The notes below the pieces were generated by a model. It searched no databases and had not been told where the DNA came from. It saw only the letters and a program-made list of their open reading frames with translations. This document shows, piece by piece, positions 28,386 to 60,500 of a DNA stretch of 64,000 bases. How positions within the stretch are numbered: position 1 is the stretch's first letter; the number at the start of each line of letters is the position of its first letter. The DNA is from Marsupella aquatica (taxonomy: Eukaryota > Plantae > Marchantiophyta). A program made the position numbers and the translations under genes. The stretch is taken from contig OZ316899.1 in assembly GCA_973895155.1 (NCBI GenBank), positions 4,033,241-4,097,240 of the forward strand. Direction: 5' to 3'.

Positions 28386-28389
28386 ATTG

Positions 28390-32627: not shown

Positions 32628-32867
32628 ATTTGTGGACACAAAATTAGGTGTGCATATTGATAGCAAGGCAATCTTCATTTTGGTGAGTCCTTGATAACAG
32701 CAAAACAAATCAAGGAAAACTAGAAATTTATGCTAATGTAAGGGGAAGTTCTCCTCATACTAGAAGAAAATGCCTGATTTGAGGACAATTTTACTATTGA
32801 CTAACATGATTTGTATACTCCAACTGTTGCAATCATCTTCTTTTAGAATCATAGCCTTCTTTAATTG

Positions 32868-33186
32868 GGGTATTTACAAACGATAAGAAATAGCAAACAA
32901 TAACTGGAAACAAAAATTGGTAATAGGAAAATGAATGGTAATTTTTTTGAATTTTTTTGGGGGCAGAAATAAGTTGTTGTTTTTTTGGCCGACAACATTT
33001 TTTTGCTAGCGCTCAAAGCTAGCCAAGAAAGGTTGTAATTTAAATGTTATCGGAAAATATGACTTTTTAGAAAATATTTTGACATTGTCATTTTTCCTGG
33101 TAATAGTAATTTTTTGCTAGTAATAGTAAAATTTTTGCTGGTACTAGTAAACCTGTTTCCTGTTTACTTTCACGCGTGCCATACCC
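32868..33186. mobile_element. Mutator-type MITE with short TIR
   Basis: GGGTAT...ATACCC ends; perfect 9-bp TSD CTTTAATTG; homologous to 53033-53334. Confidence 0.85.
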
Positions 33187-34307: not shown

Positions 34308-34462
34308 CTGTTTAGAGAAAAAGCAAGCTGAAATATCTCAGTGACAATGGTTTGAGTCATGATTTTTATCAGGAAGGAGTCTAAAATCTTGAAAATCAGC
34401 TGATCATGTCTAAACCAAGTGTTGGAAAACACAAACCAACAAGGCTTTGAATGTTTATAAAC

Positions 34463-34561
34463 CTCTATTGATTTTGCTGTTACAAGCCTGTAGACGTGCA
34501 CTGGTTTCTCCTGACCAATCCTATGACAACGGTCCATTGCTTGCAGGTCCATCTGAGGATT
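34463..34561 (-). CDS. DDM1: DDM1-type remodeller, helicase motif VI exon (33 aa)
   Basis: TTCAG acceptor, GT donor, phase 0; [33 protein letters not shown]. Confidence 0.9.
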
Positions 34562-34919
34562 CTGAAGGACAAGATTGGCAATTTTATGAGTAGAAATTAT
34601 GCAAATCCAGGACCCTAAGGCAAGAAACTGTTACTGGTTATCAGACCTTGAGCATTGGGCAGGAAGGGGGGAGATTATCCCAAGTTATCATTTCTCTTTC
34701 TATTTTCACTTAGAGTAGTAAACTATCAAGATAGACCAAGACAAACCCACAATTGGCCTCTTTATTGAAGCAGCCCAAGAAGCTACCTAAAAACCAATGT
34801 GATAACTTCAATATCATCCCAGACTATCTTACAAAATACTTTTGGCTAAAGTTTTGAAGCTCCCTTTGAGATCTCAAGTTGTAAAAGACTAAGTAATTGT
34901 AGCATGTCTATGACTATCT

Positions 34920-37011: not shown

Positions 37012-37275
37012 TAAATTTACAATTTCTTCTCAAAAACACTCTTCCCAATTCTAAAATTGAGACATCGAGGTATTGTTGTGTAACTCTTGCCCCACACTAC
37101 CTCCCCATCCACTTTCTTTCTTCCAAAATTGCATCCCAAACATTCATGCACTTTAGTGTCCAAAATGGAAATTGGCATAACTTTCTCTTAGAATGTCATT
37201 ATCATTATGGCCACGTCTTGTTGTGTATCCCTTGCTCTAGGCTACCTTCTTATCAACTTGTTAACACAAGACCAC

Positions 37276-37861
37276 TGTTGTGCAAATGCACATCGTCATA
37301 CAACATACATTGCTGGTCATGCCATACTCACATACATGCATAACATGGACAAGAGCATACACAAATACAAGATAGTGTACCGCAACTGAAATCCGTGAAA
37401 GACATACTGTCATAAAACACGTAAGAACACACACAGTCAAGCCAAACCCACTCCACAATGGAGAATCTAGGTCAAAGCTAACGGGACACCATAGCCAAGG
37501 AGCTCCACTCACTACCAAGGCTCTCCCAACGCCAAAGGCTCAGCTCAAAGAACTAACAGTCCTTTGAGCCTCTCCACACTATACCCTCCAACCCTGAGGG
37601 CGGGTCCTACTAGAGGAGTCACCCTCAACAGGGCACCCCCTCTAACCCTCTACCATGGAACCAGACTCCTAACTAGGCACTATGGCCCATCTAAGGTATG
37701 GACTCCGCTAGCACACTACATAGTCTAGTACGCTACGTATGGTCATGACAACTGTCGTGCGAATCCAGATTGTCATACAACATACATCGCTGGTCATGCC
37801 ATACTCACATACATGCATAACATGGACAAGAGCATACACAAATACAAGATAGTGTACCACA
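37276..37861 (-). repeat. 3' terminal repeat block X(109)-AC-L(364)-AC-X'(109)
   Basis: X 37276-37384, L 37387-37750, X' 37753-37861. Each runs TG...CA and X/X' differ at about 7 positions. Followed by AC and the PPT complement TTGCCCCCCT (37864-37873). Confidence 0.88.
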
Positions 37862-38034
37862 ACTTGCCCCCCTAACTGGTGGTTAGGTCCCTTCAACTCC
37901 CAGGTAGCCCTATCCATCTACTACATGCTATACACCTTTGTGGGTGCACGGATCAGAAGGTCGGGTGCTATGTTGCCCCATCATTAATCGCCCATCTGCA
38001 ATCCATACCATGTGAAGATCAAGTCATCCACCTC

Positions 38035-39422
38035 CTAAGTACACCGAGGACAAACCCACCGTCTAGTAGGCACAACATCAACAGGTGGAGTTAAGCATGA
38101 CATATGCCAACCCCTAGAACACCTATCACAAACCAACATTCGGGCTGCTTCACTAGCAGACCCACACAACATGCACCTCAAGCTAGTATCACTACCAAGC
38201 TGGGGTCCATTGTACCATCCACGTTTGGGAGGTGACATGGCGCACAATTACGCACATAGTCCTTCCAAACAACACCATCACAACCCTCCAACATGAGAAC
38301 TCCAGAAGCCAACACCTCTCTCACACGTAAGATAGTGCATCTTGCCGTCACATCCAACGTTGTCGGTGTAGTCTGCTGCAAATAGACATAGTCCCCCACA
38401 TGGAACCTACGAATGGATGGTCGATAACCTCCACCCCAGATGGTTGCATAACGCAACGTATCTCTGTGTTGAGCAATGGCAAGGTTCTCAAAGGCTGTTG
38501 GCATAACTTTCTAAAAGAGCTGTGCCCTTTGAGAACACACCCTCAACCACACCTCCGGGTCATCAAGGTTCACCACCTCACTAGAATCTCAACAAATTGC
38601 TGTGGGCAAGTCTGGGTCTTGGCCGTACAACAGAAAATAAGGTGAGGAGGAAGCCAAGGATGCTTGACGACTGAACCTATACCCCATGGCTAACCATGGC
38701 AACTGAATGTCCCAATCTCCAAGATACCCCTTCTGTAGGCCATACTTGCGCAATCCCCTCTTCATCGTCTGAACAACAAGCTCTGCCAAACCATCCGCCT
38801 CTGGATGATCTCGAGATGTGGTCCAGTGATCAATCAACGCCTTATCACACAAGACCTGAAACTCACCCTGAAACTCCGTACCCTGGTCGGTCAACATCTC
38901 CGCTGGTGCACCAAAATGACTAAGCACTCTATCAAGAAATGCATACGCTATTCCCTCACTTGCCTTGTCAGGCAATGCCACCAACTCAATCCACTTAGAA
39001 AAGTGCTCCACCATCACCAACACATACCGATGATGCCGCCTAGTTAACGGTAATGGTCCTGCAAAGTCCAAACTCCAACGGTAACCCAACCCCATAATAG
39101 GTAAGGGGTGTAACTGTGGTGTAGGGGCATTGAACGATGCCCTCACCCAATTGCAAACCATACAATGTGACACCAACTGTTTCACCTGAGTGTGGGCCTG
39201 AGTGTGCATGCCACACCACCAATATTGACCAAGAAGTAAGCTATACGTACGCTTTACTCCAAAATGTCCCAACTCCTCATGAGCATGTCGCACAATGCGC
39301 TCTCTCTGAGCTATATGGGGTACCACTCGTACTCTACCATCCTCCCACACACGGAGAACATGTGTTCCCTCCAATCGGTACCTCCTAGCACATTGGAGAA
39401 CACGGTCTCGCTCCTTGGCACT
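38035..39422 (-). pseudogene. gypsy DDE integrase followed by a C4HC3 PHD finger
   Basis: HEELGHFG...CMVC zinc motif, SLDFAGP, LTDQGTEF, HPEADGLAE. PHD: CMLC...CDRC...WHMSCL...WVCPRC. Confidence 0.92.
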
Positions 39423-42400
39423 TGTCACGTCGTAGGCTTCGGCCTTAACTCAGACTTGCTTAGACGGGCACATCCCTCGTAAATCTGAGGGTTCGGGCAG
39501 GAAGGGAAGCACGTAATGCACCTTATTCTTGTAAACTAGCGCTAAGTGCGCATACTGCTAAATACAAACACCTCCTAGGTATGGTTTGTGTTCCGCCGCC
39601 GGAACGTACCTTAGTCGATAGCAGGATCGACCCCGGCTTAAGGGCTTCTAAGCCTTCGTGCTGTCCGCCTTCGATCCGGATTCGATGATACAGGTCCTCA
39701 ACCCGTGCTCGCAACCACTTACCCGCAGGCTGCACCCTGTGCACATCTCGGGTAGTGCGTTCGGCCCGGCGCTGCCACCCATATACGAGAAACCCACACA
39801 CATATGCGCACACATGCATACAATCTCGATTTACACGAAGGAAAAATGATGGGAAAGGATTTTACTACAAAGGGAACATATGCGTACACTTAGTTGACAC
39901 GACAGCCCTGGAATGCACAGGTTCAAGGCCAAGGGTGCACACTACAACGGAGCCCGACTCCGCACTCGCCCGGCGAGCTTAGTCCTACCCCCTCCCCTTG
40001 GTACTCTGTCATTCCCAGAGGTCGGGACTCCCCGCATGTCCCGCGGATGTCCGACTCTGAAACTAAAAACCCCCCCTGCCTCTACCGAGGGGTGCACTAA
40101 ATACTAAGAGCCGAGGAACGGGGTGTCCTCACGCTGAAGATTTGCTGACTAAGGTCCTAACTAAGCTGACAGTCAGGCCGGAAAACGGCTGTGTCTTATT
40201 AGAAGATCCTAATTTACGCAGGCTGGACAGCAGGGCAGCGCTGCTGTACCTAAGGCAGGTGCCTGTCTCAAGAGCCTAACTAAGCCAATCCTAATCCTAA
40301 TCTATTCCTACTCTGCCGCTAATGCCTGGCACGCTTGCCAGAGCCGCCCGAATGGGAACGGCCATCCCGCTGCCTTCGAAGCCTGTCATTGTCCGCCTTG
40401 AGGAGCTGGACCTGGTCCAGCAGAGATTCGTTCTCTCGCCTCGCCGCGTCCGTCTCCTCTACTGCCTCCTGACATGCCTCCTCCAGCTGCTGGGCGTCGC
40501 TCGTCAGTTTACTCGCCAGCTGGTCCTGCTTCTTGGCCTCGGTTTGGAGCCGCGCCATCTCGGCCTGCAGCGTGGCTATCTCCGTCGCGTCCCGCTGGGC
40601 TCGCTCCTCGGCCTCCTCCAGGTCTTTCTGCCAGGTGACAGCTTGTTTCTTCAAACTGTCAATCTGGTTCCGGAGTCGTGTAATCTCGGCCTCGTTCCCA
40701 GCTTTGGCCTGTTCGGCTAGGGCGGTAAGAGCGTACGCCTTTGCTAACAACTCATCGGCGGCTGCAACCTTGGGTCGTAGTTGCAGAAGCTCAGCCTCTT
40801 GAGCCGCCACTTCGTTCTTTAGGTACACGGACTCCACCCGGTACCGCTCTATCCTCTGAAGGGCCTCCGACTGGGCCCGACCTGCCTTTACGGCGGCAAC
40901 CAACTCCTGATTGAAGAAACAGGCTACCTTCCGGGCCATGAACTCCCCGGTATCCCGGGCAATTTGATGAGAGAAATCTCCCAGAAGCTCGTTCAGAAAC
41001 GTACCCTGTACGAAGAGTTCCGGGTGGTCCAAGTTGTGCCTGTCCGGATTTGGGCACGGGCAGACATCAACACGCGCAGGGGCCGGGGCAGTGACGTCCA
41101 GCCCTGGGGACATAACGTTGGAAGGGGCTGGAGTGTCCTCCTGCAGCGATGTTCGGTTCTCCGGAATTGCCACCGGCGGGTCCTTGGGAGACCCGGGTTC
41201 GGGTAAGACCTCTGCCGTACCAACTTCTGTACTTAGCCCGGCTAGTTGGGTCGCATCAACGGTTGCGACGACCGACCCCTCCGACGCCTCCTCGGGTACG
41301 ATTACAACTATTTGTGGAGGTGGGGTGGGTGAAGCTGGCGTGTCCACTGGACTTCGGGCCTCGGGTTGGGGCCGTCTCTCCAATGCCGGAAAAACCCACC
41401 TAGCTGGGACCAGCTTTGTAACGTTGATGCGGGGAAGGGTTCGTCGATCAAACCGGGCGTACCACTCAAGAATGATTTCGATGTGGCTAGCGAAATACGC
41501 CTTCCCGCCAATGTACAGCGTCTTCCTTCGCAGCTCCATCTCTTCATGGAATTTCTTAGCGAAGTACGACGCCCATTTCCTAGGTCGATAGTTCTCGACC
41601 TGGATAACCTGGGCGGCGGAGATCTCCCCCCGGGGTTCCATCATGTGGAGAGCGTACCTCTGGAACTCCAGCCGCTCAGCTATCTCGGGCATGAGGCAGG
41701 TCCTCATCACGAACCCGTTGTCTACTGATCCCTCTGAGGGAAAACTTGAAGATTGGTACTTGGCCCCCTTGCCCCCGGGAGCCCGTGATTCGACTCGATG
41801 ATCACCTTCGGGTAACCCGAAGATCATCTTGAGCCGTTCTTCTGTGAGGGACATATTCCTTCCCCGCAGCCGAGTCTGTTGATGTACGTCGTCATAATTC
41901 TTGACGAATTCTGTCATGTCCTCCCCGTAGTACCTGCAAGTGTTCCAGGGGAGAGAGGCGAGGTGCTCAAATCCCTGAGTCTTCAGGTACACCGCATGCT
42001 TGGGATGGAGGATGTTGTTGTGAACGTTTTCCCCCATGCGATGCATCGTCACCTTGGCTACGGCTACCGTGGCCAACGGTAACCCGGATGCAGTGGCAGA
42101 TTCCTTCCTCTTCTTTCCCCGTGACTGACTCGGGGAAGGTGATACTTCCCCATCCTCCCGATCGGGCCTGGGGAGTGCCACTGCGGTTGGTAACGGGCCC
42201 GGGGCGGCCACGGTCACCATGTTGTCTGCTGGGGCCGCTCCTGGGGTCAGAGCAGGGGGTGGGGACGATATAGTGTCGGCCCCCCGCGCGCTTGTTCCTC
42301 TGGGCCGCCTGGTCAAGGGTGGGGTAGCCTCGTCGTCATCGCTAAGATCCACAGCGTTGATGACGGAGCGTACCTGTGCTGGCTGGGTGATAGGTGGTGG

Positions 42401-43421
42401 GGTTTGGCTAGGCTGCGGCTGAGGCTGAGGCTGAAGCTGAGGTTGCATGGGCACGGGTACGGGTACGGGCCCGGCTGAGTTGGTCATGTTGGTTGATGGC
42501 CGAGTTCCCATGAAGCTCTGCAGGTGCTGGTAGAAGTTCTCCGAAGCGAGTGCGGACGCCCTTGTCGAACGGTTGGTACTGGACTCCCCGTTAATGACAG
42601 CCCGAACCTGGGTAGGGATGTGGTCGAAGTGATGTCGCTGTAGGTCGATTGTACCCGGGATATTGAAGACCTCGTCCGGAAGCCGAAGCAATGCTTCCCA
42701 GAACCCGATATATTTGTCTCCGTTGAAGAAGTACCCAGATACCTCAGCTGGTCGGTAAAGCTCGCTCTGAGACGGGTAGTCAAAGTTAAGGACGTAGTGG
42801 TGTCGTCCTGCTAGGCGGATGGCTCTCTCGTATTCGCGTTCGATCTCGTATCGGCGCGGGTTGGCGTGTTTCAATGAATCGGCCAAGTGCCTTCCGGTAG
42901 ATAGGAACTGCGTCCAGAATCGAATGGCCGAGCTGGAGAGGATCGTGTGCGACATTCAGAGGAGATAGTAGTGGCGACCTAGAGAGAACGAGAGAGCTGG
43001 GGTCGAAGCTGGCGCGCGGACTGATGGACTGGTGCACTACAAAGGGTTGGCTCCCCTTTTATACTTTGAGGGCTTGTCGATCCCCGACGTCTCCTCGACG
43101 CCCATAGGTTGAACCACTCACGCTTGTGGTGTACCGGCCACTCCGCCGGTCTGAGTCAGCGTGCGTCAGTGGCCGCTTCCTTAAGTTCGTTATACGGACC
43201 CGAGGGAGGGGCCCCTCCACGCTCGTAACCCGGGTGTGCGAATAGCGACCCGCCGCCAGCCCGAACCTGAAGTCCCCCTTATTGCCTAATGATGTCCTAC
43301 CCCTAATGATTACCTAAATACTGTCGTTATGCTAATAATAGCGGCCTAAGACCCACCTAACGCGCGTGCCGAGCGCAGTTAGACTGAATCACTCATTAAC
43401 CGCCGTACCGGCGGCGTCACA
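39423..43421 (-). mobile_element. ORF-bearing TG...CA unit, family F2, complete copy (3999 bp), inserted in the RNase H-integrase linker
   Basis: TGTCACG...CGTCACA; perfect TSD GCACT (39418-39422 / 43422-43426). Removing it restores PGIVSAKERDRV. TATAAAA at 43057-43063. Confidence 0.93.
40319..42955 (-). CDS. 878-aa protein of unknown function (novel N-terminus, PQ-rich linker, retroelement accessory-type domain, coiled coil, basic NLS-like motifs)
   Basis: Uninterrupted ATG-to-stop ORF about 100 bp below a TATA box. Conserved in the decayed copies at 28857-31484 and 57030-64000. Confidence 0.8.
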   Translation of the reverse strand: MSHTILSSSAIRFWTQFLSTGRHLADSLKHANPRRYEIEREYERAIRLAGRHHYVLNFDYPSQSELYRPAEVSGYFFNGDKYIGFWEALLRLPDEVFNIPGTIDLQRHHFDHIPTQVRAVINGESSTNRSTRASALASENFYQHLQSFMGTRPSTNMTNSAGPVPVPVPMQPQLQPQPQPQPSQTPPPITQPAQVRSVINAVDLSDDDEATPPLTRRPRGTSARGADTISSPPPALTPGAAPADNMVTVAAPGPLPTAVALPRPDREDGEVSPSPSQSRGKKRKESATASGLPLATVAVAKVTMHRMGENVHNNILHPKHAVYLKTQGFEHLASLPWNTCRYYGEDMTEFVKNYDDVHQQTRLRGRNMSLTEERLKMIFGLPEGDHRVESRAPGGKGAKYQSSSFPSEGSVDNGFVMRTCLMPEIAERLEFQRYALHMMEPRGEISAAQVIQVENYRPRKWASYFAKKFHEEMELRRKTLYIGGKAYFASHIEIILEWYARFDRRTLPRINVTKLVPARWVFPALERRPQPEARSPVDTPASPTPPPQIVVIVPEEASEGSVVATVDATQLAGLSTEVGTAEVLPEPGSPKDPPVAIPENRTSLQEDTPAPSNVMSPGLDVTAPAPARVDVCPCPNPDRHNLDHPELFVQGTFLNELLGDFSHQIARDTGEFMARKVACFFNQELVAAVKAGRAQSEALQRIERYRVESVYLKNEVAAQEAELLQLRPKVAAADELLAKAYALTALAEQAKAGNEAEITRLRNQIDSLKKQAVTWQKDLEEAEERAQRDATEIATLQAEMARLQTEAKKQDQLASKLTSDAQQLEEACQEAVEETDAARRENESLLDQVQLLKADNDRLRRQRDGRSHSGGSGKRARH

Positions 43422-43487
43422 GCACTCACTATGCCTGGCACCCTACTGGTCCGTAGGAACTCTAACACCAACGCATCATCATGAATA

Positions 43488-45206
43488 TCATGTTGATCGA
43501 TCTGTAGCACCATCTCCAACCTCCGGATCTGCAGGCTGGCCATCTACCCTCTGACTAGAGGAAGGTGTAAGGTGATCCTCCATACTAGAGTTCACACCCA
43601 ACAAACACAAAAAGGCAGATGCATGCCATGCTGGCACCATCTCCTCATCAACCTCTCCATGCCATCTAGCTCCAGTATCATCCTCCTGACTAGGACATGG
43701 GTTCCTACTCAACCCATCAGCATCAAGGTTGGTAACTCCAGGTCTATGTACCACCTGAAAGTCATACTCCTGTAAGATAAGAGCCCACCGTGCAAGCTTT
43801 CCTGTAAGCTTATCAGCCTCCATCAACCACTTGAGCGGTTGGTGATCAGTAACAAGGGTAAACTCTATGCCAAACAATTAACACCTGAAGTGTGCCACAG
43901 CCCACACTGTTGCCAAGCACTCTCCCTCGTATGAACCATAGCTTGATTCTGTTGCATTGTTTGAACGACTTGCATAGGCCACCACAAACTCCTTGTTCTC
44001 ATCATCATGTTGTGTCAACACCGCTCCAATCCCCAACATACTCCAATCAGTGTGCAGTTGAAATGGGTGACCCCTGATAGGTCTCCTCAAGATAGGCGCA
44101 AACACCAACTTGGCCTTGAGCTCCATAAAAGCTCTCTCCTAGTCATCTCCCCACTGCCACTCCTGATCAGACTTCAACAACTTGTTCAAAGGCTTTGCTA
44201 TAGCACTAAATCCCTTCACATGTCGCCAAGAGTAGTTCGCCAATCCCATGAATGCCCGAACTCTACTCACATCTGTCGGCCGAGGGATACGTGCAATAGC
44301 CTCAACCTTTGCTTGTTGGACCCCCAAACCACTTGGGTAGATCACATGACCCAAGTACTCAACATCCTCATGGAAGAACCTACACTTTCCTGGATGTAAA
44401 CGTAGACCATGAGCTTTCAATCGCTCAAACACAATCTGCAAATGTTGCTGGTGCTCCTCCACAGTATCACTGAACGCCAAGATATCATCAATGTAACACT
44501 GAACAAAATCCAATCCTGCTAGGATCCTGTCCATCACTCTCTGAAACTCGGCAGGTGCATTCTTCAACCCAAAGGGTAAGAATCGCCACTGATACAAACA
44601 ATCCTTGCCATATGAGTTGACTCCCCAAAATGCTGTCTTGGCCTTGTCACTCACTCGAATTGGCAACTGATGGTATCCTGCCCGAAGATCCAAAGTACTG
44701 AAAATCCTTGCATTTCCCACCACATCAAAGATCTCCTCAGGTGTGGGCATGGCATACCTATCGGCCTTTGTCTGCCGATTGATAGGATGGTAATCTCCAC
44801 ACATTCGCCTCTCTGTGTAGTTGCCATGCACATCCTTTTTGATAGGCATGACAGTGGCTGACGCATACTCCCCATGCAACAACTCCACTAATCCAGCCTC
44901 CAAAAGGTCCAATTTCTTACTCCGAATCAAGTCCCTCTCCACATCACTATATCTGTAGGGACGACAAAAGATTGGCGTATCACTAGCCAAATCAATCCGT
45001 ATACCAGGTCCAACCAAAGCACCCAACTCCTTCATGCTAAAGGCAAAACAACTCCTATAAGCACGTAGGAATTGTGTCAACCGTCGTCGTTCACCTCCTG
45101 TCAGCTTGGGTCCAAGTGATGGCTCCCAAGTCTCCTCTACCAGTACACTAGAGGAAGAGGACGATGCCATTGGGTTGCTATGCCACCTCCTCACACGATG
45201 GCACAT
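43488..45206 (-). pseudogene. gypsy RT and RNase H
   Basis: RMCGDYHPIN, STLDLRAGYHQL, PFGLKNAPAEFQR, YIDDIL, LHTDWS, TDHQPLKWL, KLARWAL. Confidence 0.95.
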
Positions 45207-46473
45207 GCTCCTTTACACCATCATTTGAGCAAACAACTCCTCCACCAGCATGGGCCACCAACTCTACATGCCCATCCATCACATCCCATGTACGCCAAGG
45301 ATGCAAACTACCACTCTCCTCGCCCCCAGCCGATGCCTCTACCATCCCGGAAGGCAACAAGCTCATCACCAGGGGTGAAGTAACCACAGACATGGTCCTA
45401 AGTCTCCGCTGCTCGGCCATCGCAAGGTTCACAATCCATGTCAAACAGTTCAGGTCCATAGCCTGACCCAACACCTGGCGACGTGATGCCTCTGAAATTG
45501 AAGAGACTAATGTCACACCGGTAGGAAACCCCATAGCACGCTCTCTCTCATCAACGTTGGACTCCACCAACTGGCGCACATGAGAATCCCATACAAGCCT
45601 AGGACCACCATCCCTATAGGCATGTGATGAGGGAAAACTCACAAATGTAGGCAAAGCCATTCTAGGCTGCCCCACAAGGTTCACTATTGCCATGGGTGAC
45701 CTATCCACTGCTCTCGCCACCTGAGAATGTCGTCCACCATCCAAAATACTATCCATAGTGAGAGATAGAGGCCGCTGGATTGCATCATTGGCGCGCCTCA
45801 AAAGCTCCCTGGATAACAAGTTCGTCCACCACAACCATGGACGATGTGCACGTGAGCCCACCCTCGTTGCATCCAACAAAATAGCTGGCCCAATCCATGA
45901 CCGTACCTCATCTGCAGCCGTGATCACATGAGATCTAGTATCACCCAACAAAGGGACATTCTCCAGAATGTAAGCTGGAGCACGTGCCTGATGCACTTGA
46001 AGATGACACAACACCCACAACATCTCCCAAAACATATGAGAACGAGGGTCACGTAACCCTCCACCATGAGCAGCCCAAGTATGTCCCTGACATGGCCATC
46101 CAGCAATCACCAAATCAATAGGGCCAACCTTCTCAAGGTCTTGTGCCCCCAACAATGAAATGTCTGATGGCAAACTCCATTAATACCCCCAAATTGCGGA
46201 CTGTGACAACAACTCAGGGTATCTCTGCATCAACAATGCAAGATGTCGTGATGAAACCCTCCTCGCGGTCTCATCTCTCTCCACATACAAATACTTCCTC
46301 ACAGGTATCCCGGCCTGCAACACTGCAGCCAAACCCATGCTAATCCCACCAAAGAGGTCCAACACACAGATACCCTCTGGTGGATACTCCCCAAAAATGG
46401 GTGTTGTATCCAAAGGAGATAACCCCATTGGACCACCAGTAGGAGCTCGTCTTGGAGCCTCCTCTACCTCCAC
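45178..46473 (-). pseudogene. DNMT3-like C5 cytosine methyltransferase domain in the polyprotein
   Basis: Motif I VLDLFGGISMG, II YVERD, IV GPIDLVIAGWPCQG, VI YILENV, VIII AHRPWLWWTNL, IX ERERAMGFP, X RRQVLGQAM. One in-frame TAA (46180-46182). In frame with gag-PR across a TAG (46498-46500). Confidence 0.92.
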
Positions 46474-46497: not shown

Positions 46498-49213
46498 CTA
46501 TGATATCAAATGATCAGCCTTCTGCCTCAACACTCCACCTGAACTCCAAAGTGGAACATCCAAAAAGGAGGGTACCACTGCCGCCAAACTAAAGACCTCC
46601 TCTACCTCCTCATAGACTAGAGAATCCACGGCTAAGAGGTTACCCTCCAACAAATCCCCTGGCCAAGTGACCACTCCACTAAAACCAGCAACTGATGCCA
46701 ATACCTCTGGGGAAGTCCCTCCTGGTCTAACCCCAGAAATAAACCTCACAGGCACCTGGCTCAAATGTCCATCACCAGACTGCCAACCAGGTCTAAAGGC
46801 TGCTGTCTCAGTCCAATAGTCCATCTGAAAACCCATCGGGTACAACACTGCACCTCCAACTAGTACATCATACAACTCTGCTGATGTCACCACAGCAGTC
46901 ACTCCTAATGTAGAGCTATCACTCGCATGATCTGGCCTCATCTGCACTGACACCCTCTCTCGTGTCATGAAGTGAGACCTATCACTGGCTCCTCCAAGTG
47001 ATGTCTGAATCTGGAATGGGCATGGCTCCAACTCTGACCTCCGAATACCCAAACCAATACAAGCTGCCTTCCCCAACATCAAGGGTTGGGCACCAGAGTC
47101 CAACAACACCCTCTCTGGTCTATACACCTGTCCTGAAGGACTCACCAATTGAAAGACACCAGTCCGGTTGTTCAACATACATACTCCAGGTGTAAGCCTC
47201 TCACGATCAATGGCTGGTTGGGCTGGTAATGCATCCATCCTCGCCGCTGCCGCCTGCCAAGTAGCATCGGTACTTAATGCAACATCTGACACTAAGGGTT
47301 GCTCAACAACAACACCCTCACACGCCTCAGCACTTGTAGCAGCAACACTCCCACGTTCACACAACGTGCCAGCTAGCTGAAATACACAAGTCATGTCAAC
47401 TCTTGAGGCCATCAACTCAGTTGCGGAAAATAATGAGGATCCTAATACTGAGGTTGCCATCCGCAACACTGCACTAGAGGCTACATCTGTGTCTACTACA
47501 CGTGATGTAGATGCCCCTGTATCCACTATCGGCTCAATAGTTCTCATAGGAACCATGGATGGAGTCCTAAGCACCTCTGACAACAATAATGACTGAGGAA
47601 GCCTAGCCTGCCTCCCAGCCTCACCCCTCTGTGGGTCCAACTCCACAATGGCACCACGTGGCTCTGAAGCTCTAGTTGCACCTCTCATCAACGCAACTGA
47701 TGCCTCAACTTGTGCCGCACTTGCCATATAAGAGAGATCATCCCCCCCATAAGACGTGGAAGCCCCTGCTCCCGAACCTGCTCGAGGTGGAATACCAGCC
47801 ATAGTAGCAAGTCTCTGCTCCAACTGCTCAATCCTAGCCGCCATAGCAACCTCTATCATAGGGGGAGGGACAGCCACTATAGGCGCTCCAACTGCTGGTG
47901 GACCTCTACCACCCCTACCACCTCTACCAGCTCCACCACCTTGGCCTCTCTGAGGTGCTCCACCATGACCTCGACCACCCATCCTCAACTCTGGGTATAG
48001 GTCAAAACAACGGTCTCGAGGATGACTTGCTTGACCACAATGATCACACTGCACCTGGGCTGACTGAGATCCATCCTCTAAACTCCGTCCCGCACTCTCC
48101 TAGGGACAAACCCTCCGGACATGATCACCTCCACATGTCCAACACATTGGTCCTTGCTGTTGGGCAGCATATGAAGGCAACGGTCTCTACACACTCATCC
48201 CTCTGGAACCTGACTGAGGTTGTGCCAAACTTCCATGACTCCCACTACTACCACCACCACCACTACTACAAGACTGTAAAGTGGCTGGCTGAACTCGAGA
48301 AGTAGTGGCTGTATCCCTACTGAATGTAGATGTCACTACCCTCTCCTCCACCATGTTAAGCTCAATCTTCTCAGCCAAAGCAAACACACGGGACAACGTG
48401 GGTGGATCATCACTCATCAGAGTAGCACCATGTACCCTCCTCCACAACTCTCTGTCCAAAATCCCATACCAGAACTGGACAGCCTGTGCCTCAGTCACAC
48501 CCTGGGTAACTGAAATCAAACGCCGCATACGAGTGTATGCCTCACGAAGACTCTCACTAGTCTTTCTCTCAAACTCCTGGAGACTCCTCAACTTCTCTGT
48601 CTTCACCCCCTGGTAGTTCTTCTTCAACCTCTTGAAGAACTCTGTAACTAGGCTGAACGAAGGTGGAGCGCTAGTGCCTCCACTAGCACCTCCACTAGTG
48701 CCTCCACTAGTACCAACACCACCCTGAGTGATAGACACATAGACTGGAGACCAATGTTGTCTCCATGCCTCAATCTCAATAGCATGGTCCTTCTGGAACT
48801 CATGATAATCATCCATGGGAGGCCCCTCCAAGTGCTGAAACAACCCCTTCCATGCCAAGAAAGGTGTAAATAACGTGGTGTTACGCAACATCTGCATATC
48901 ACACCATGTATCAAACTCTTGAATGAAGTCCTCCAACTCATGGTGCCCACTGCCCTGAGTAACGTCGTGGGCCCTTCATGGCCCCGTACATCCCGTCCAT
49001 ATCCCAAATCAATGGGGCTGCTATACTGGACAATACAACTAAAGACTTGATGTCTGGAACACCCTCGTCCTCATCCTCATCAACTAACGGTAGTGGAAAA
49101 GGTAGCCGATACCTCAATCCACTCTGTGTAAAACCACCAGTGTCAGCACCAAGGTCCCCAACAGGACCACCAAACTGCTCCGTGATGACAAGCCGCAACA
49201 GCACCACCACCAA
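46498..49213 (-). pseudogene. gypsy gag, CCHC knuckle and aspartic protease (frameshifted)
   Basis: EDFIQEFDTWCDMQ gag, CDHCGQASHPRDRC knuckle, RGG-rich stretch, VLLDSGAQP protease. Confidence 0.85.
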
Positions 49214-50847: not shown

Positions 50848-50858
50848 AGTTCTTTGAG
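50848..50858 (-). promoter_or_regulatory. Candidate self-priming PBS (11 nt)
   Basis: Directly abuts L' and is the exact reverse complement of 51016-51026 inside L'. No tRNA-type TGG PBS is present. Confidence 0.6.
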
Positions 50859-51222
50859 TGAAATCCGTGAAAGACATACTGTCTTAAAACACGTAAGAAC
50901 ACACACAGTCAAGCCAAACCCACTCCGCAATGGAGAATCTAGGTCAAAGCTAATGGGACACCATAGCCAAGGAGCTCCACTCACTACCAAGGCTCTCCCA
51001 ACGCCAAAGGCTCAGCTCAAAGAACTAACCATCCTTTGAGCCTCACCACACTATACCCTCCAACCCTGAGGGCGGGTCCTACTAGAGGAGTCACCCTCAA
51101 TAGGGCACCCCCTCTAACCCTCTACCATGGAACCAGACTCCTAACTAGGCACTACGGCCCATCTAAGGTATGGACTCCGCTAGCACACTACATAGTCTAG
51201 CACGCTATATATGGTCATGACA
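50859..51222 (-). repeat. 5' terminal repeat L' (364 bp)
   Basis: About 11 differences from 37387-37750; TG...CA; lacks the X segment. Confidence 0.95.
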
Positions 51223-51850
51223 CCACCCTTCATAAGGTTTTGCCTTCCTCATTGAGATTCAACCCTCCAACTTTTCATCTCTAAATCCACGTTTTCTGGT
51301 CTGGTCTTGAAGCCCTTGACAACATGGTGTTCCCTATCTGATTTTCAGCCTAAGAAAACTTCTCTACATTTATCAATTTCTCACATCAAGAAAATTGTCC
51401 CAAAAACCGTCAAAAGTCCAATCTCTCCATGTTGACTTGACTTCCTTCCATTTCTCACCAAGAAAGTGACTCATCCATAAAACTCTCCAGTAGAACCTTC
51501 AAACTTCAGTCCACTAGAAGAAAGGAGCAATGGCTATTCTCTACACTCCCATCATCTTCTATTGTCCCTCTCCTAACTCCACATCAGACTCCAAAGCTCT
51601 CCATTCAATACACCTCACCAAAAATTTAGAGACCAACTCTATAATGAATCCTTCTCACAATTCATTAAACCCTAAACCCTTCCACTCCACAATACTCTTT
51701 CCACATCTTCTCTTAGAACTATGCATGCTTCTCCAAACTTTTATCTCAAAGCTCACCTCCTTGAAGCCCAACACTTGGCTGCCCCTCAACGGTAACCAAA
51801 TCAACAAATGCCACATTGCTTTTCCTAGGTGCCACATTGCCCCTCCTGGG

Positions 51851-52185: not shown

Positions 52186-53032
52186 GTTGATGGCCTAGGC
52201 AGTGGTGAGAGCGTTCATTGTGTTCCAAGATTGTGGTGAAAGATTGAATTGTCATTGACAACTAAATGAGGGATCCTATCACTTGCAGTTTTGCGTTGAT
52301 TGTTTTGTGTTTGGAAGAGGTGACGGTTTCCCGATTCAAACTTCTCTGAAGTGTTGGAGGTGTCACTATGTGTAAGTAGTGAGCAAATTACAAAAACTAG
52401 AAATAAATGGAATTTGGCAATGTCTTTGGTCAAAGAACCTCGTCATTACTATTTTAAATATTTGTGTTGCTTGGGGCTTTGCATACATTGAAACAAATTC
52501 TTTTGGAGAATGCAAAGAATGATTACCTAGGATATGTGAGGTAACTGTGGAATGGCTCAGTAGAGGCTTGAGTAGGATATGCGTAAGGTTTTTGCTTTGG
52601 AGGAATAGTAATAACATAGTTATAGTGATTAGCAAAGTTGTTAGATTTAGGGTAACTTAATAACTAGGGAAGTAGAGTAGGGAAATAAATTGAGGGAGGA
52701 GAAATGTTGCTCTAAGAAGTATCAAGAGTTGAGTAAGCTATTTGGTAAGGCGAAAAGAAGTTACGATACTCGGCAAGTCAGACAGGAGGAATGACCGATA
52801 CTTTATAGCAATATGTTTTGTTAAGACTTACACTATAGGTGCTAGGTAGTACCTAGACCACACATAAAAGTTATGAAGTCAAGTGGGGTCTTAACCTAGG
52901 AGTTTTGAGTATTTTGACAAAACTTAAAATAACCAACTAGCGACTCTTGGATAAAATAGCTAAGGGATACATTTTGTGGGTTAGAGTTTATAATTAAATT
53001 TAATATAGCCCATAATATCCCTTGAATGTATG

Positions 53033-53334
53033 GGGTATTTACAAACGACAGCAAACAGCAAACAATAATAGGAAACAAAAACTGGTAACAGAAAAATGAG
53101 TGGTAATTTTTTTGAAATTTTTTTGAAATTTTTTGCCGAATTTTTTTATAAAATTTTGCCGAAAATATTTTTGCTAGCGCCCAAAGCTAGCCAAAAAATG
53201 TTTTCGGGAATTTTTTTTGTTTGAAAATGTGATTTTTTAGGAAATATTTTTACATTTTCATTTTTTTGGTAACAGTAAATTTTTGTTGGTACAAGTAAAC
53301 CTGTTTCCTGTTTACTGTCACGCATGTCATACCC
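53033..53334. mobile_element. Mutator-type MITE, second copy
   Basis: GGGTAT...ATACCC; 9-bp TSD GAATGTATG / GAATGTATT (8 of 9). Confidence 0.85.
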
Positions 53335-54239: not shown

Positions 54240-56975
54240 TAAATTGGTAACTTATCACACACAAATGACTAGATTGTCAAATAACTTTTCAATTAGATTT
54301 AGACTGATGCTCATGGCAATGGAACATTCAATAACAAGTACTGGAATGGCAACACTTGAATGCTACAAAGAAATCAACATGGAGCAATTCAAATCCATAT
54401 CCAATTGTCAAAGTATGGTCTCAAATTACTAAGGTATTAACTTCTCAATAGGAGAAGGATTCTTTAGTTCTACTCACAACAGGTCAAGGCTCAACAAGAG
54501 CACTTGAGGAGGAGCTTCTATGCTTCCAACAAAAACTAAGAACTAAAAGAAAATGTAATCGTCATCCTACTTAAGATGCTCAAGGAAAAGAGGGTAAGAT
54601 CCCAAAAGGCATCAAGGTTGATTTCCCGATGATGGAAGAAAACATAACTGTTGTTAAGATCCGAAAATGAATACAAGGCAAAATTTGGAAATGGATTTCC
54701 GGTTTTACATAAAACTTTGGATTTGAGTTTTTGCGGATCCAGTAATACTAACTCAAATTAATCTAAAACTACATATACTATAACACTATCCTCTAGATCT
54801 ACTATATCTGGGTCACAAACAATATCAACTTGACTAACGGGTTAATTACTGGGAAGTAGGTGTCCTTAAAGTAGTAGTAGTAGTAGCCTCCACATCCTTC
54901 AAATCCAAGGGAGAACTGCATGGAGTGTTGATAGTCAAAGGTGACACAGACGGAAAACAAAACTCAACCTTCTCAAATCTGGGTGGAATATTTTTTGCTT
55001 TGAATCAAATATTCCGGATTCCGAACACAGACACGTGCCAATGTTGACTTTGCATCCAAAATCACCTTCTCCATCTGGTCAAATGCTCCCGTGATCTTCT
55101 TGGCAAACCGGTTATTGCACTTGATAACCTTAGCAAGGGTGCCTGGATTGGCTATTGCCAAATACTTATCAATCAAATTGGTTTCCAACAAGCCTAAAGT
55201 TGGAACATGAAGAGCTTCCTGAACAGTGGTGAAAGTTGCATTCAGTAGCTTCAGGATTTGCAGATGTTCCTCCAACTCTTTCTGGGCAGCATCTAATTGG
55301 TCCACTAAGGAATCAATCTTCCTTCTGTCTTTATCTGCCTAGTCTTTCAGATCCCAGATCCTCTTATTGGCCTGACTTTTGATCACCATCTCCAAAGTAG
55401 AAATGATAAGAACTGGACTGCAATTCAACATCTCAACAACTGTCCCAACAAGATCCTCTAGCTACTTGGTCTTTTCGGCTACACTCTCCACGAATGTATT
55501 GATGTGTTCCAACTCTGCTGAGGCCGTCCACTTGGAGCTCGGTGTCACACACGGAAGGCTCCCTCTACTTTCCGGTTTTTTGACAGGTTTTGGATCCAGA
55601 ACAGAATCCAGTTCTGGACTATGGACCACTCTCTTCCGAGTCCTAGGGGTCAAACTTCAACAATCGGCTCTTCCTTTGATTGAGTCCCCTCAGACTGCTG
55701 CCAATCCAAATCTCCAAGTTGAGCGAGCATTGTCTGGTTATCATACTCCTCTACTTCTTTGTCATTTAAAACCCAATCCATGGAGTATAGGTTAGCCAAG
55801 TAGCAAGAAAGGGATGTGGGGGTCTTCAAATGAAGATTTCCAAACTTCTGTATGTATGACTTCCTCCAAAATCTTTGCCCAAGAAATCTTCTTGTCTCCA
55901 ACATCGGAAGTAGCGATGGTGTTACCAATCCGGATGGTAACTTGTCGAGGCTTGGCAGGGGATAGAATTGGTAAAAGAGAAGAAAAGAAAGAACATTGAA
56001 GAACTCCTCAATAGAACATTGGGACACCTTCCATCCATCCTTCGGATCTACCTCTCCATCAAAGTAATTATCAGCAAAATTGTCTTTTGAGGTCAGAAAG
56101 CTCTCTCCCTTCAATGGCACATCCAACAATGATGAAATAACAACCACAATCCACTTTTCTGGATTTCTTCTAATAGAATCTGGAAATTCCAGAGCAAGGG
56201 TCACACGTACAATTTTGGACCTTCTTCACAAACACCGCACTCTGGTAACCCCATGGAAACTTGAGTAGCTTTGCATAGCCCATTATCTCTAGGTTGTTTT
56301 GAAGGCGGTCTTTCATTTCTGGATCCGACAGGATCTTGGGTTGCAACGGCTTTTTATTAACAATGATGGTTCGCTCCTTGGTTGATTGCTTGGGTACCGT
56401 CCGGATTCTGGATTTTTTGGGGGCAAAATTTGGATCCTTTCTCTTCGCCATGATGAGGCAATGATTAGAAAGAAACCAAATTAAAAACCGTTAACAAAAA
56501 TCCGGAAATCTCAAATCCAAAAATCAAAATCAAGTCTTCAATCTCTTCCCCACTCAATCAAACAATCACCTACTTTCCCCTAACTAGTTCTTCTCATAAC
56601 TAATGCCTCAAAACGACAACCTTGTCCGGCTCTATTCTCTCCTATAGTTTCACACTAAAGATTTCAGTAGTAGTTTGGTGTGAGGAATTTCGGGTTTAAA
56701 GTGGCCTTAAGAACTCGGAAGCCAATTTTCAGTCTCCATCCGGATGTTCAACTTATGGTTTTAATCGTCATTCTAGAAGATCTCCTAGCGCAACGTGGCA
56801 GGTACTCGTAATTTGGACATCTAAAAGAGTGCTATCGGATTTTTCCGGATCTCATACTTCAAACTAGTTTTTATGGCCATTTTCAGGCTTAATATGCTCC
56901 ATTAACCAGTTAATAAGAGATAAATTATTTTTAAAATCACTTTTTAAATCCGTTGGGCATAGCCATGATATCGCA
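54240..56975 (-). mobile_element. Family F3 unit, decayed copy truncated on the left
   Basis: Collinear with about 15400-19450 (minus the copia insert); right end GATATCGCA; ORF fragments 54973-56451. Confidence 0.8.
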
Positions 56976-57561
56976 CTTATCCTTACTACTAGCATTCCTA
57001 CCTAACTCTAGCTCTATTCTGAAACTACTTTGCCGCTAATGTCTGGCACGCTTGCTAGACCCACCCAAGCCAAACCCGGAATGTGCGTCCCAATTACTCC
57101 TCAGGTGGTTGGCATCCTACTCTAGTAGCAAGACCTGATCATTGAGGGATTCATTCTCCCTTTTGGCCGCGTCCATCTTCTCTGCAGCCTCTTGGCATGC
57201 TCTTCCAACTGCTGGGCGTTGCTCGTCAACTTGCCACTAGTTGGTCCTGGGTTGGGGCCTATTGTTGGACCCGCGCCACATTCACTTTTAGGGCATTGAC
57301 CTCCGTTGCATCTCTTTGGGCCCGAGCTTTGTCCTCCACCACGTCCTTTTGCTAGATTGGAGCTTGCCCCTTCAAGCTATTGATCTGTGCCCAGAGCCGT
57401 GCTATTTTTGCATCCTTACCCGCTTCGGCTTGCAAGGCTAGGGCCGTCTGGGCTTTGGCATTGGTGATCTGGCCTAGGGAGGTTGCTAACTGGGGCCAAA
57501 GGAGTTGTAACTTGGTCCCTTGGGCTGAGGCTTCATTTAATAGTTGGGTTGCCTCAACCTG
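56976..57561 (-). pseudogene. C-terminal part of a decayed F2-family ORF (host of the F1 copy)
   Basis: GCCGCTAATGTCTGGCACGCTTG matches the F2 ORF end at 40315-40340. QVEATQLL...INSLK is homologous to the F2 coiled coil. Confidence 0.75.
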
Positions 57562-60500
57562 TGTGGCGCGTTTTCCAAGACCTCTAACCCAAAGAACTAC
57601 CCTCAGTCGATCATAAACCACTCGCTTATGTCCGTCCTCTTGCCCTTTGGCAGCTATTCGGTTTGGAAACGCGATCCTCTCCTTTGATCCACACACCGGA
57701 CCAATTCTTTCACTGGGCTTGTGAATTGTGCACAACTGAGACACCTAATTCCTCTTTAACTTCTTCAGGTATATTTGTATTCCGCCCCCGGAATGTACCC
57801 TTACGGCTTAATTTCTTAAGCCGGCTGAAGGTCTTTTTCAGACTGACTCAACTCACACTTCACCGACTAAACACTCTCAATCCTCACTTTTCTCTCAAAG
57901 TTTGATTGGGCAGTCTCCAATCAAGACAATGCGATTGTATTTTGCTCAATAGTTCACCCTATCTGACTTAAATCAATCAAGCAACAGATATCATAACACT
58001 CAACTTCTTGGATGGCAAGAATCTGCAAACTATGCAACGAGGCCAACTCAATTCAAACAATTGCTCAGAAATCCAAGGGAACTGGTGGTTTACTGATACC
58101 CTGCGGTCTAGGTTTAGCCGAGAGCTTCCTGTGCTCACAACAATACAGATTTACACTAAAGCCTTGACTAAGAAAAAGCCCCTCGGGCCATGTTGCCCAG
58201 ATTTTTATCCTTGCAACGTGTTCAGGGAAATGGCGGAAATCCTAACCACAACTCACGACCTTCCACCGCGATAATCCTACTAAAAAACTATTACCTAAAA
58301 AACTTGACTAGCCCGGAACCCTGTGTGAACCGAGCATCTAATACTACCTAAGCCAACAGGGCGCTACTTGCCCTGTCCCATCCTACAACGGTCGCGCCCT
58401 TCTGGCCCAAGCCCTTCTCCTGCCGCCACGTCCTCCTTCCAACCGATGACTGGCCCTCCTTAATTGTCAGATGACCAGTGGTAAGTCCAAATTTTCCGAC
58501 TCTGCACCTTCTCCTGCCATCGGCTCCGGCTTGACCCCTTCGGCTTCCTCGACTTCGGGTTCTGGTTTGTCGGCCCCTGCATCGGCTGCTGCATTGGCAT
58601 CCTCCTGGGAAACGGCTTGGAGAGCTTTTGCCTTAACTTCCTCAATCCAAGCCTGCTCCCCGATGCGCTCGGTCTCAATAACCCACGGCTTCACGTTCTG
58701 GGCGTCCATAGAAGCAGTACCATCGTCTGAACCTGTTACCGCAGCTCCAAGTTGATCCGCAGTACTTACCTCTACTACAACTGCCTTCAGGGCCATAGTA
58801 CCACAAATGTGAGCGGCCATGCTCTCGACTTCCTCCGGAGTGGCTTTAAGGGGCTTAACTTTATTATCGCCTGGCCCCATGAACGTCTTTGCCAAATCTG
58901 CTACCAACTGCATGGCTTTGCCCCCAGTCACGCTTGACAACAGTGAGCTCGGCTTCGGCTTTGGCTTCACTGTATTTCCGCCTACCATACTACTGACGGG
59001 AAGCCTTTCAGTTGGTGACCCATATCCCGCTTTGGCATACTTCTTCAATTTCTCCGTTTGATTGTCGGCACGCTTCTGCAACCCGAGCATCTTATCCCTG
59101 GCCTCCTCCAATTCCTGAGATACGTCTTCAACTTCATTGTTAAGCCGTTGTATCTTGGACCTGGCCATCTTCAGCTCCTCATTTAAGATTTGCACGATCT
59201 CCAACTCTTGCTTATCTACGGCTGCTTTCAAGGAGTCATTGATGCCTTCCAGTTTTGTGACCTTGTCCGTCCATGCCTGCTTTGTCCTGGTTAGCTCCTC
59301 CTGAAGCTCCTTGCGTATCTGTTGGACCCGGTTTAGGTGATCATTGGCCGTTGTGCACATGGCGTCATCATGCTTCTCACGCATGGCCTCCAACCGGTTG
59401 AGTAACTTCTCATACTTCCTTTGGGCTTCTGCCAAGGCCTTCTCGCTCTGGGTGGCCTGATCCTTAGCCGTCGTTTTGAGCCTCTCGACCTGGTGATTTA
59501 GACCCTATACTTCTGCTTTTGAATCGGCTAACTCCAGCTCTACCTTCGTCAATTTTTCCTTGATTTGCTGGTTATCCAATTGGTTGTTCGCCACCTCCAA
59601 TTCCTGCTGCTTAGCCAAGAGATCCTGCTGAGTTGGTTGACCAGACTTCATCTTAGCAACTTTGGCTTCCATGGAGCGAAGCTGAGCAATTACCTCCTCT
59701 TTCTTTAACCGCTCCAACGTCATTGCCTCCTCCAGTCTCATTTGATCAGCCACTTCTTTTCTAAGAAATGGCCCGGATTCCAACTCGTTACCAAAGATTT
59801 CAAAGGCTAAGAGTCCACACATGTCTCCATACTCCTTAGCCCGATTTCTTGCGTAGTTTGACCTCCCAGGTGATACTAGCATTTGCCATCGAGGTCGTCT
59901 CTCCCAAGCCTCTGGCCGTAATTGATCAAAGTTAGTGAGAGGTTCAGCATGCCTCTCACTAAGCCATCTTATTTCTTCCGGCCACTCTCCTCCTAGTGGT
60001 TGGCATTCCTGTTCTACATTCCGGGCCCCCCACTCCTTAATCCTCTCTTGTAGCCCGGCTTCAGCTTCCTTCATCTTGTCAAATTCCAATGGCGTCACAT
60101 CTGGTGGAGGAGATTCTGGTGTTTCCTGGTCCTCCGGCTTGCCATAGAAGACTACGGGAAGTCTTCTACAAAACCTTCCCATCATTCTAACTCCTGGTAC
60201 CGGCCTCTCCCCGTGATTGACATAGTCATCATCGTAATCATCCAAATTAACCTGACTACCTAGCATGCTGGCCTCTCCTCCAAAGCCCCCGATCTCTTCC
60301 TCCGAATATTGTTGGGCTGCTACTGGTTGACTTTCCTCCACAGGTCCCTCCACTTGGGCTCTGTTAGAAGCTCTTAATACCGGCCTCTCCTGGCTTTGGC
60401 TTACCTCCTCATCTGTCTCCGAATCCATTCGCTCGTCATATTTCTTTCTCTCTTTGGCAGTCATCTTCCTTTCGACCAATTGGATGCCTGCATATGGATT

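Follow-up and report, generated by a model that had tools for sequence, protein, structure and literature searches.

Why retrotransposons should carry an enzyme that normally silences them is a question that has stood since 2018, in part owing to known hosts that are hard to work with. It is raised here by a Gypsy retrotransposon of the liverwort Marsupella aquatica (Marchantiophyta), which spans positions 51222 to 37276 of a 64,000-nt stretch of its genome (GCA_973895155.1, contig OZ316899.1, positions 4,033,241-4,097,240, forward strand; hereinafter the window) and contains a cytosine methyltransferase (DNMT) domain. All coordinates below are positions within the window, and as the element lies on the minus strand it runs from high to low numbers. 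Its coding order is gag-PR-DNMT-RT-RH-INT-PHD (PR stands for protease, RT for reverse transcriptase, RH for RNase H and INT for integrase), combined with a repeat split into parts A and B in the layout A1-coding-B1-A2-B2 (Table 1). The gag-PR-RT-RH-INT order, the DDE integrase, the TG...CA ends and a 4-bp target-site duplication (4-6 bp in this group) are those of Ty3/Gypsy elements; in place of two identical long terminal repeats (LTRs) bounded by the primer site and polypurine tract there is the split repeat.

The methyltransferase domain and its family

The DNMT shares the minus-strand reading frame of gag and PR and lies, as the original prediction had it, between the LDSG-bearing protease and the RVT_1 match of the RT. 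Its motifs follow each other in the order I-X without permutation: DLFGG (I, 46359-46345), GWPCQ (IV, 46101-46087), LENV (VI, 45966-45955), AHRP (VIII, from 45849) and GQAM (X, 45468-45457). The domain matches PF00145 with E 6.6e-7 (29.5 bits as against the curated cut-off of 22). In a phmmer search of the PDB, DNMT3A ranks first (E 4.8e-9, versus 9.6e-6 for DRM-type enzymes), and a profile of the family run against solved structures recovers DNMT3A with 8e-29, DRM-type enzymes with 2e-16, M.HhaI with 2e-10 and DNMT2 with ~6e-6. An AlphaFold model of the domain (predicted local distance difference test, pLDDT, 94.6) retrieves DNMT3A/B in 34 of the 34 rows shown by Foldseek (best E 3e-18, TM-score 0.68 over the query), and in the Atlas phage DNMT clusters at 0.95 are listed beside a streptophyte cluster at 0.96. 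By the ranking of both sequence and fold among solved structures, DNMT3 is closer than DRM, DNMT2 or bacterial enzymes, in agreement with the earlier assignment to the DNMT3 rather than the DRM order. We identify the domain, from its sequence and modeled fold, as an unpermuted DNMT3-like C5-methyltransferase between protease and RT. This ranking also bears on the idea that the enzyme methylates the element's RNA or an RNA-DNA hybrid rather than double-stranded DNA, as has been proposed for DNMTs borne by long interspersed nuclear elements (LINEs; PMC5890265), and for which the Gag-fused position would place it beside the packaged RNA; with sequence and fold matching DNMT3A/B and the DNMT2 match far weaker, we consider it highly improbable.

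The catalytic PC, ENV and RxR signatures are conserved in the family: the Cys is kept in 137/138 aligned relatives, the Glu in 139/141 and the two Arg of motif VIII in 137/143 and 140/143. A non-catalytic job, in which the domain would bind or shield complementary DNA (cDNA) or decoy host methylation factors while the CpG loss described below came from host enzymes, fits the inactivity in yeast of a comparable algal enzyme (PMC5890265). The retention of these four residues in 96-99% of the relatives is hard to explain without catalysis, and we regard such a role as improbable. The window copy itself, for which a complete motif set with PCQ and ENV had been claimed, does have all the motifs but has lost the second Arg of motif VIII and contains an internal stop. 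It is, as anticipated, a dead copy: besides the missing Arg it has frameshifts, a 4-kb insertion and stops that fall in gag, in pol, inside the DNMT and ahead of it.

All searches for relatives were seeded from the DNMT. When longer relatives were sought, 32 proteins came up, of which 15 are named Marchantia polymorpha and one Sphagnum fallax, and a search for proteins of near length gave 283 matches; the 120 listed among the latter include proteins named Calypogeia fissa (4), M. polymorpha (4), M. paleacea, Riccia sorocarpa, Sphagnum troendelagicum (2) and S. tenellum, along with one bearing a bacterial label. The M. polymorpha proteins Mp4g09160, MpVg00370, MpVg00540, Mp5g06330 and Mp5g06860 are ORF1 products of the family (ORF, open reading frame), with an open gag-PR-DNMT and all catalytic motifs, and the window gag is about 70% identical to Marchantia ORF1. 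The family is widespread in liverworts and peat mosses. Some of the Marchantia ORF1 gene models sit on the V sex chromosome. Separately, a 46%-identical family DNMT (P0071), labelled as a protein of a bacterial metagenome-assembled genome, comes from a 2.4-kb contig and is probably eukaryotic DNA in the bin. None of 68 pattern matches in viral contigs was confirmed as a relative, and no RNA dataset holding the element was found among the 24 sequencing-run rows listed.

In a library of 50% clusters, 2229 representatives match at E 0.001 and 206 at 1e-30. Among the best 150 two architectures are seen, namely PR-DNMT-RT (13/150) and RT-RH-DNMT-INT (78/150), with the remaining 59/150 showing the DNMT only. 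As many as 68 of the 69 representatives of at least 900 aa also match gag, protease, RT, RNase H or integrase. Of the two outcomes by which the original prediction would have fallen, a missing C5-methyltransferase profile match and a one-off captured fragment, neither was borne out among these DNMT-seeded relatives. We further fetched 80 of 82 confirmed metagenome loci (hereinafter L numbers), several of which are the same insertion in different records, so that counts over them are not independent. Trees of the RT and the DNMT, built from 21 rows of loci and proteins with both domains after leaving out duplicates, agree in their well-supported parts: a 7-row clade is common to both (100/99 and 100/98), as is a group with the second architecture (97/97 for RT, 83/85 for DNMT). 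L036 changes place with weak support. The DNMT is under purifying selection, as is that of the published algal Gypsy-DNMT3. Its ratio of nonsynonymous to synonymous substitutions (dN/dS) is 0.19-0.22 when the window is compared with five loci, and 0.15 between L029 and L030, as compared to 0.12-0.16 for RT and 0.15-0.25 for protease. Close dead copies show 0.44-0.70, as expected from decay after insertion.

Because of the 80 loci, the dN/dS of about 0.2, the largely matching RT and DNMT trees and the element domains in 68/69 long relatives, we conclude on comparative grounds that the DNMT is a long-standing part of the element. The alternative, that part of a host DNMT3 gene was captured once and does nothing for the element, has a negligible probability: the domain sits at the same place in dozens of loci as well as in named proteins from five genera-level sources, has no introns or boundaries of its own, evolves with a dN/dS near 0.2 between subfamilies and follows the RT in its trees. 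We take this alternative as refuted by the shared position, the dN/dS and the agreement of the trees.

Table 1. Features of the Gypsy element, listed in the direction of its transcription
Feature	Position	Strand	Evidence or remark
Target-site duplication, 5' side, GTGG, 4 bp	51223..51226	-	flanks joined without the element in an X3 contig
Repeat A1, 364 bp, starts TGTCA	50859..51222	-	353/364 bases same as A2
TATA-like box near 51055, predicted transcription start near 51026	inside A1	-	
Primer-binding site, complementary to 11 nt inside A, putatively self-priming	50848..50858	-	
gag with zinc-knuckle region; frameshift near start and two stops	47900..49000	-	Retrotrans_gag E 4.5e-4
Aspartic protease, LDSG at 47103	46801..47250	-	weak Pfam matches
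DNMT3-like C5 cytosine methyltransferase, motifs I-X unpermuted	45400..46375	-	PF00145, sequence and fold matches
Conserved TAG-CAA stop ending gag-PR-DNMT, predicted read-through signal	45172..45180	-	
Reverse transcriptase and RNase H, two decay stops	43430..45128	-	RVT_1 E 1e-30
Nested unrelated 4-kb (3999-bp) insertion, TG...CA ends, 5-bp duplication	39423..43421	-	interrupts pol, separating RNase H from integrase
DDE integrase: H2C2 zinc finger and rve core	38190..39422	-	rve E 5.9e-13; Integrase_H2C2 E 3.9e-11
PHD finger at pol end, frameshifted in window copy	38041..38175	-	PF00628 E 1.7e-12; L029 has it in the integrase frame
Polypurine tract immediately before B1	37862..37873	-	
Repeat B1 (109 bp), with the palindromic CA-NN-TG junction to A2 at its end	37753..37861	-	
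Repeat A2	37387..37750	-	11 differences from A1 (3.0%)
Repeat B2, ends CA = element 3' end	37276..37384	-	
Target-site duplication, 3' side, GTGG	37272..37275	-	

A conserved stop and split repeats

Two stops in the gag-PR-DNMT frame had been put down to decay, and they behave accordingly: that at 46180-46182, inside the DNMT, is a sense codon in 32/32 relatives, and that at 46498-46500 is sense in 21/33 and a stop in 12/33, marking a recurrent decay site. The stop at 45178-45180, where the predicted feature begins and the gag-PR-DNMT frame ends, is not decay but is conserved in the family. The open Marchantia ORF1 proteins end at the matching place, and in relatives the frame beyond it continues into RT, with RT-RH-INT-PHD in the same frame; in the window copy a private one-base frameshift follows the TAG-CAA. 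Across 52 loci with the DNMT upstream of RT, the stop is an in-frame TAR-CAR in 32 and TAR-TAR in five, lies off-frame in three and is missing from 12. There is no stop between DNMT and RT in L039/L046/L047, L076 and L077, and a single open ORF holding both domains is found in L039/L046/L047, L076 and the RT-RH-DNMT-INT relatives; the window subfamily has the same frame behind the conserved stop. The exact TAG-CAR-YYA, which is the plant read-through consensus of the tobacco mosaic virus type (PMC3542737), occurs in distant subfamilies (L007, L029/L030, L041/L042, L059 and L065), and the close subfamily mostly has TAG-CAA-CCC. Judging from these stop contexts, gag-PR-DNMT is likely the abundant product with pol made via read-through, which would place the enzyme at the level of Gag.

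Two other accounts of this region were rejected, namely a programmed +1 frameshift between DNMT and RT, since the relatives are in frame behind the conserved stop, and a second conserved signal at 46498-46500, where near-identical copies vary between sense and stop with no read-through context following.

The ends of the element are shared by relatives, combining DIRS-like split repeats with Gypsy domains as described for the algal Gypsy-DNMT3. The A-coding-B-A-B layout recurs in L037 (with a CATA duplication), in L012 and L067 (3' part), in L009, which the end of its contig truncates, and, among distant loci, in L039/L046 and L060/L061. In the close subfamily ten loci end after a single B (A-coding-B), with at least two pairs sharing a site; the TG of A forms the start of 6/6 visible 5' ends in this subfamily, and B the limit of all visible 3' ends. 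Loci in which both ends can be seen have 4-bp duplications at their flanks (TACA in L013, ATTA in L038), with one mismatch in L022 and likewise in L039. A contig of sequencing run X3 joins both flanks of the window element without it, and another contig shows the A-to-B join in a variant copy. Beside these, L022 (7011-7417) and L031 (5081-5487) contain an internally deleted derivative in which a truncated RT is joined directly to repeat B, with a 3' flank common to both.

The B/A junction forms the palindrome GACA-NN-TGTC, which occurs once in the window and follows the polypurine tract in L009, L012, L029, L045, L062 and L067, in both architectures. Overall there are 38 matches in 652 kb of loci, and 24 of the 33 loci listed are without a strict match, many of them ending at B or decayed. 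The A/B join, for its part, links the start of the primer site to the end of the polypurine tract, and is without CA/TG in L039 and L061; therefore, ends defined by RT appear to be joined inside the element while integrase-type ends lie elsewhere. The simplest route to such products would be a circular cDNA cut at the palindrome, and the element may integrate from a circle: a one-repeat circle would yield A-coding-B and a two-repeat circle A-coding-B-A-B.

The primer site pairs with sequence ~30 nt after the TATA-like box, in the window over 11/11 nt and in relatives over 16/17 (L009), 12/13 and 15/16 (L039/L046) and 10/11 nt (L061), with that of L037 pairing only elsewhere in A. Such pairing in three divergent subfamilies points to self-priming of the kind by which Tf1-like elements are recognized.

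The probable target of the enzyme

CpG across codon boundaries was scored against synonymous shuffles. The observed/expected ratio in the window element is 0.32 for ORF1, 0.12 for RT-RH and 0.17 for integrase, as compared to 0.62-0.93 for six other ORFs of the window. Among the 14 relatives tested, L007 (0.26, 0.05), L029 (0.32, 0.39), L051 (0.23) and L054 (0.30) are depleted in CpG with GpC not depleted; L007, L029, L030, L051, L054 and L062 all have values of at most 0.43, and L044, L063 and L073 of 0.51-0.62. In the A repeats of the window element six CpGs are kept in both copies and four in only one. Because this amounts to a loss of only about a fifth per copy since insertion, post-insertion decay is too small to explain the depletion, which in our reading of the base composition favours CG methylation of the element by its own enzyme and so lends indirect support to the self-methylation suggested in the original prediction. 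Amid the otherwise heavy CpG loss, the CG in the palindrome (CGACA) is kept in the window, L009, L029, L045 and L062.

On balance, we lean towards the view that the enzyme methylates CG sites on the element's own new cDNA. The RNA would start inside A and prime itself. Most ribosomes would stop after the DNMT, leading to its packaging in Gag-like amounts, with read-through of the TAG-CAR stop supplying RT-RH-INT-PHD. Inside the particle the protease would free the DNMT, which would then methylate the cDNA before or at insertion; a new copy would thus come in already marked in the manner of host chromatin. Tethering of the integrase to chromatin would fall to the PHD finger, and the RT-defined ends (A end, B start) would be joined with the integrase cutting the internal CA-NN-TG B/A junction, most simply on a circle. 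As a precedent, related DNMT3 domains of Symbiodinium retrotransposons methylate CG in yeast (PMC5890265).

Several observations weigh against this scheme. The DNMT of the Gypsy element of the alga Klebsormidium nitens gave no methylation in yeast, in an assay that its authors call inconclusive (PMC5890265), and because the target-recognition loop differs from that of DNMT3A a CG preference is not readable from the sequence. CpG depletion is weak or absent in L052 (1.00), L076 (0.92), the DNMT frame of L009 (0.80, unlike its pol at 0.30), L078 (0.79) and L053 (0.71), of which L052, L053, L076 and L009 keep the catalytic Cys despite little CpG loss. The depletion could also be the work of host enzymes or of a past host that methylated more heavily, the comparison having been made with other ORFs of the window. 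As for the stop, the TAG-CAA-CCC of the window subfamily is one base off the consensus and 12/52 loci are without such a stop. With respect to the ends, recombination of B1 with B2 can likewise leave A-coding-B, and the mirror product A-B-A-coding-B was not seen, B preceding A in 0/6 visible 5' ends of the close subfamily, though a two-repeat circle has two equal junctions.

Some of the same data could instead reflect an active enzyme directed at host chromatin, i.e., the insertion site, older copies, competing elements or silencing in trans. A leaky stop would make the enzyme in excess of pol and beyond what one cDNA per particle needs, pol has a chromatin-reading PHD finger, and several catalytically intact relatives are without CpG depletion. 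Yet the fusion to gag and protease points to the particle, the commoner position between RNase H and integrase (78/150 best representatives) points to the cDNA complex, and CpG loss at the level of lineages fits action on the element itself; we accordingly view a host-chromatin target as unlikely.

Returning to methylation of the cDNA, the retained CG of the palindrome permits a further, more tentative proposal. Methylation at this site could determine the junction, of the two, at which cutting takes place, and would thereby link the enzyme to the unusual ends of the element. Equally tentatively, and with distinctly less weight than the cDNA target itself, we raise the possibility that these elements represent a large, unnamed Gypsy clade, extending into liverworts and peat mosses, with an undescribed DDE-integrase route, which would self-prime, circularize RT-defined cDNA ends, cut an internal CA-NN-TG palindrome, pack a DNMT3 at Gag level via a leaky stop and premethylate its cDNA, with CG methylation of the palindrome perhaps choosing the junction.

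Known systems, window context and implications

That retrotransposon-borne DNMTs are known from dinoflagellates and charophyte algae, as the original prediction stated, is borne out by Symbiodinium and K. nitens (PMC5890265). According to de Mendoza et al. (2018, PMC5890265), KnitGypsy-Dnmt3 of K. nitens is a Gypsy element whose unpermuted DNMT3 is under purifying selection and whose repeats are DIRS-like. The window family shares with it the Gypsy domain set, an intronless DNMT3-related domain without permutation and with conserved key residues, a Ka/Ks near 0.2 and the repeat arrangement of DIRS elements of the split-repeat type (legend to Fig. 4c, PMC5890265). It differs in its land-plant host and in that, in the window subfamily, the DNMT ends ORF1 before a conserved stop, while the K. 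nitens DNMT shares an ORF with RT and RNase H (PMC5890265 peer-review file). In the portions of that account consulted there is no mention of read-through, self-priming, a PHD finger, a 4-bp duplication or an att-like B/A junction, and no protein named Klebsormidium is among the matches listed in our protein searches. By published description rather than by sequence, the element works like KnitGypsy-Dnmt3 and shares its rarest trait, the end repeats. It is best read as a land-plant branch of Gypsy-DNMT3, a kind of element already published for a streptophyte alga.

Other systems share individual traits. SymbioDIRS-Dnmt3 and SymbioLINE-Dnmt of Symbiodinium are also retrotransposons bearing C5-methyltransferases, the former with A-coding-B-A-B repeats and CG activity in yeast and the latter with CpG depletion (PMC5890265); unlike these types, which use a tyrosine recombinase or a LINE endonuclease, in the window element the integrase is of the DDE type, the ends are TG...CA and the target site is duplicated. 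DIRS/Ngaro elements are defined by a tyrosine recombinase and the absence of a target duplication (PMC8969392), a definition from which the rve integrase and 4-bp duplication set our element apart; a Pfam scan of the complete relatives L029 and L051 found no recombinase. EpiLTRs of Cymbomonas and Euglena are LTR retrotransposons with a DNMT and a chromatin-reading domain, but theirs is DNMT4-related and accompanied by an adenine methylase and a chromodomain; their authors call them distinct from 'streptophytes (Gypsy-DNMT3)', and the main text of the preprint, so far as seen, does not mention Marchantia, bryophytes or land plants (bioRxiv 10.64898/2026.05.21.726589). In the self-priming Tf1/Sushi and plant Tcn1 chromoviruses (Neumann et al. 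2019, PMC6317226) the primer site is likewise not of tRNA type and is complementary to the RNA at its predicted start, but their LTRs are of the ordinary paired kind and they have a chromodomain; the words 'methyltransferase' and 'PHD' have 0 occurrences in the text seen of that survey. Chlamydomonas Gypsy-7a_cRei has a Gypsy pol with a PHD finger and LTRs drawn with sub-parts, but no DNMT or split-repeat ends are described in the parts of that source at hand (PMC9940879). In the text available to us, a liverwort genome paper has 0 mentions of methyltransferase (PMC12885004) and PMC11982613 and PMC6673714 have nothing on the family. Our literature search found no description of a land-plant Gypsy-DNMT3, its read-through or its integration route, with subscription papers and Repbase Reports mostly outside its scope and with figures or supplements of PMC5890265 and the 2026 preprint possibly including land-plant sequences.

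The window holds several further elements. The insertion nested in the Gypsy element, which contigs of runs X1 and X2 skip, is devoid of internal repeats and has an open 878-aa ORF (40319-42955) with only coiled-coil-type Pfam matches and no match in the protein collection; a second copy at 28381-31780 is 87.6% identical, and there are weaker matches at 57025-63427. We take it for a possible giant solo LTR or non-autonomous element. A young Copia element on the plus strand (8957-14123) has 194-bp LTRs that are 99.5% identical and two long ORFs in different frames (9281-11212 and 11224-13632), and a plus-strand LINE (21819-23030 and 24428-27070) has an open 880-aa RT/zf-RVT frame with an ORF1-like frame upstream. 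About 2.7 kb from the 3' end of the Gypsy element lies a spliced SNF2 helicase exon (~34459-34590, minus strand), which we take to be DDM1-like. The remainder includes two 2.7-kb copies (15423-18086 and 54263-56907, 74% identical) of a decayed repeat with ORF remnants, two related decayed multi-ORF elements with coiled-coil-rich proteins on the minus strand (1438-4690 and 58467-61881), and a short AT-rich dispersed repeat (32866-33186 and 53031-53334, 74% identical over 336 bp) that is possibly like a miniature inverted-repeat transposable element.

The family also has practical consequences for the study of bryophyte genomes. Given their split ends, these elements are likely to escape standard LTR finders or to be cut wrongly by them, and their ORF1 gene models can lead to too many DNA methyltransferases being counted in bryophytes. 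In M. polymorpha, a young family with open gag-PR-DNMT frames is annotated as ordinary genes, which makes the activity of the enzyme, methylation of the cDNA, read-through and the circles testable in a genetic model.

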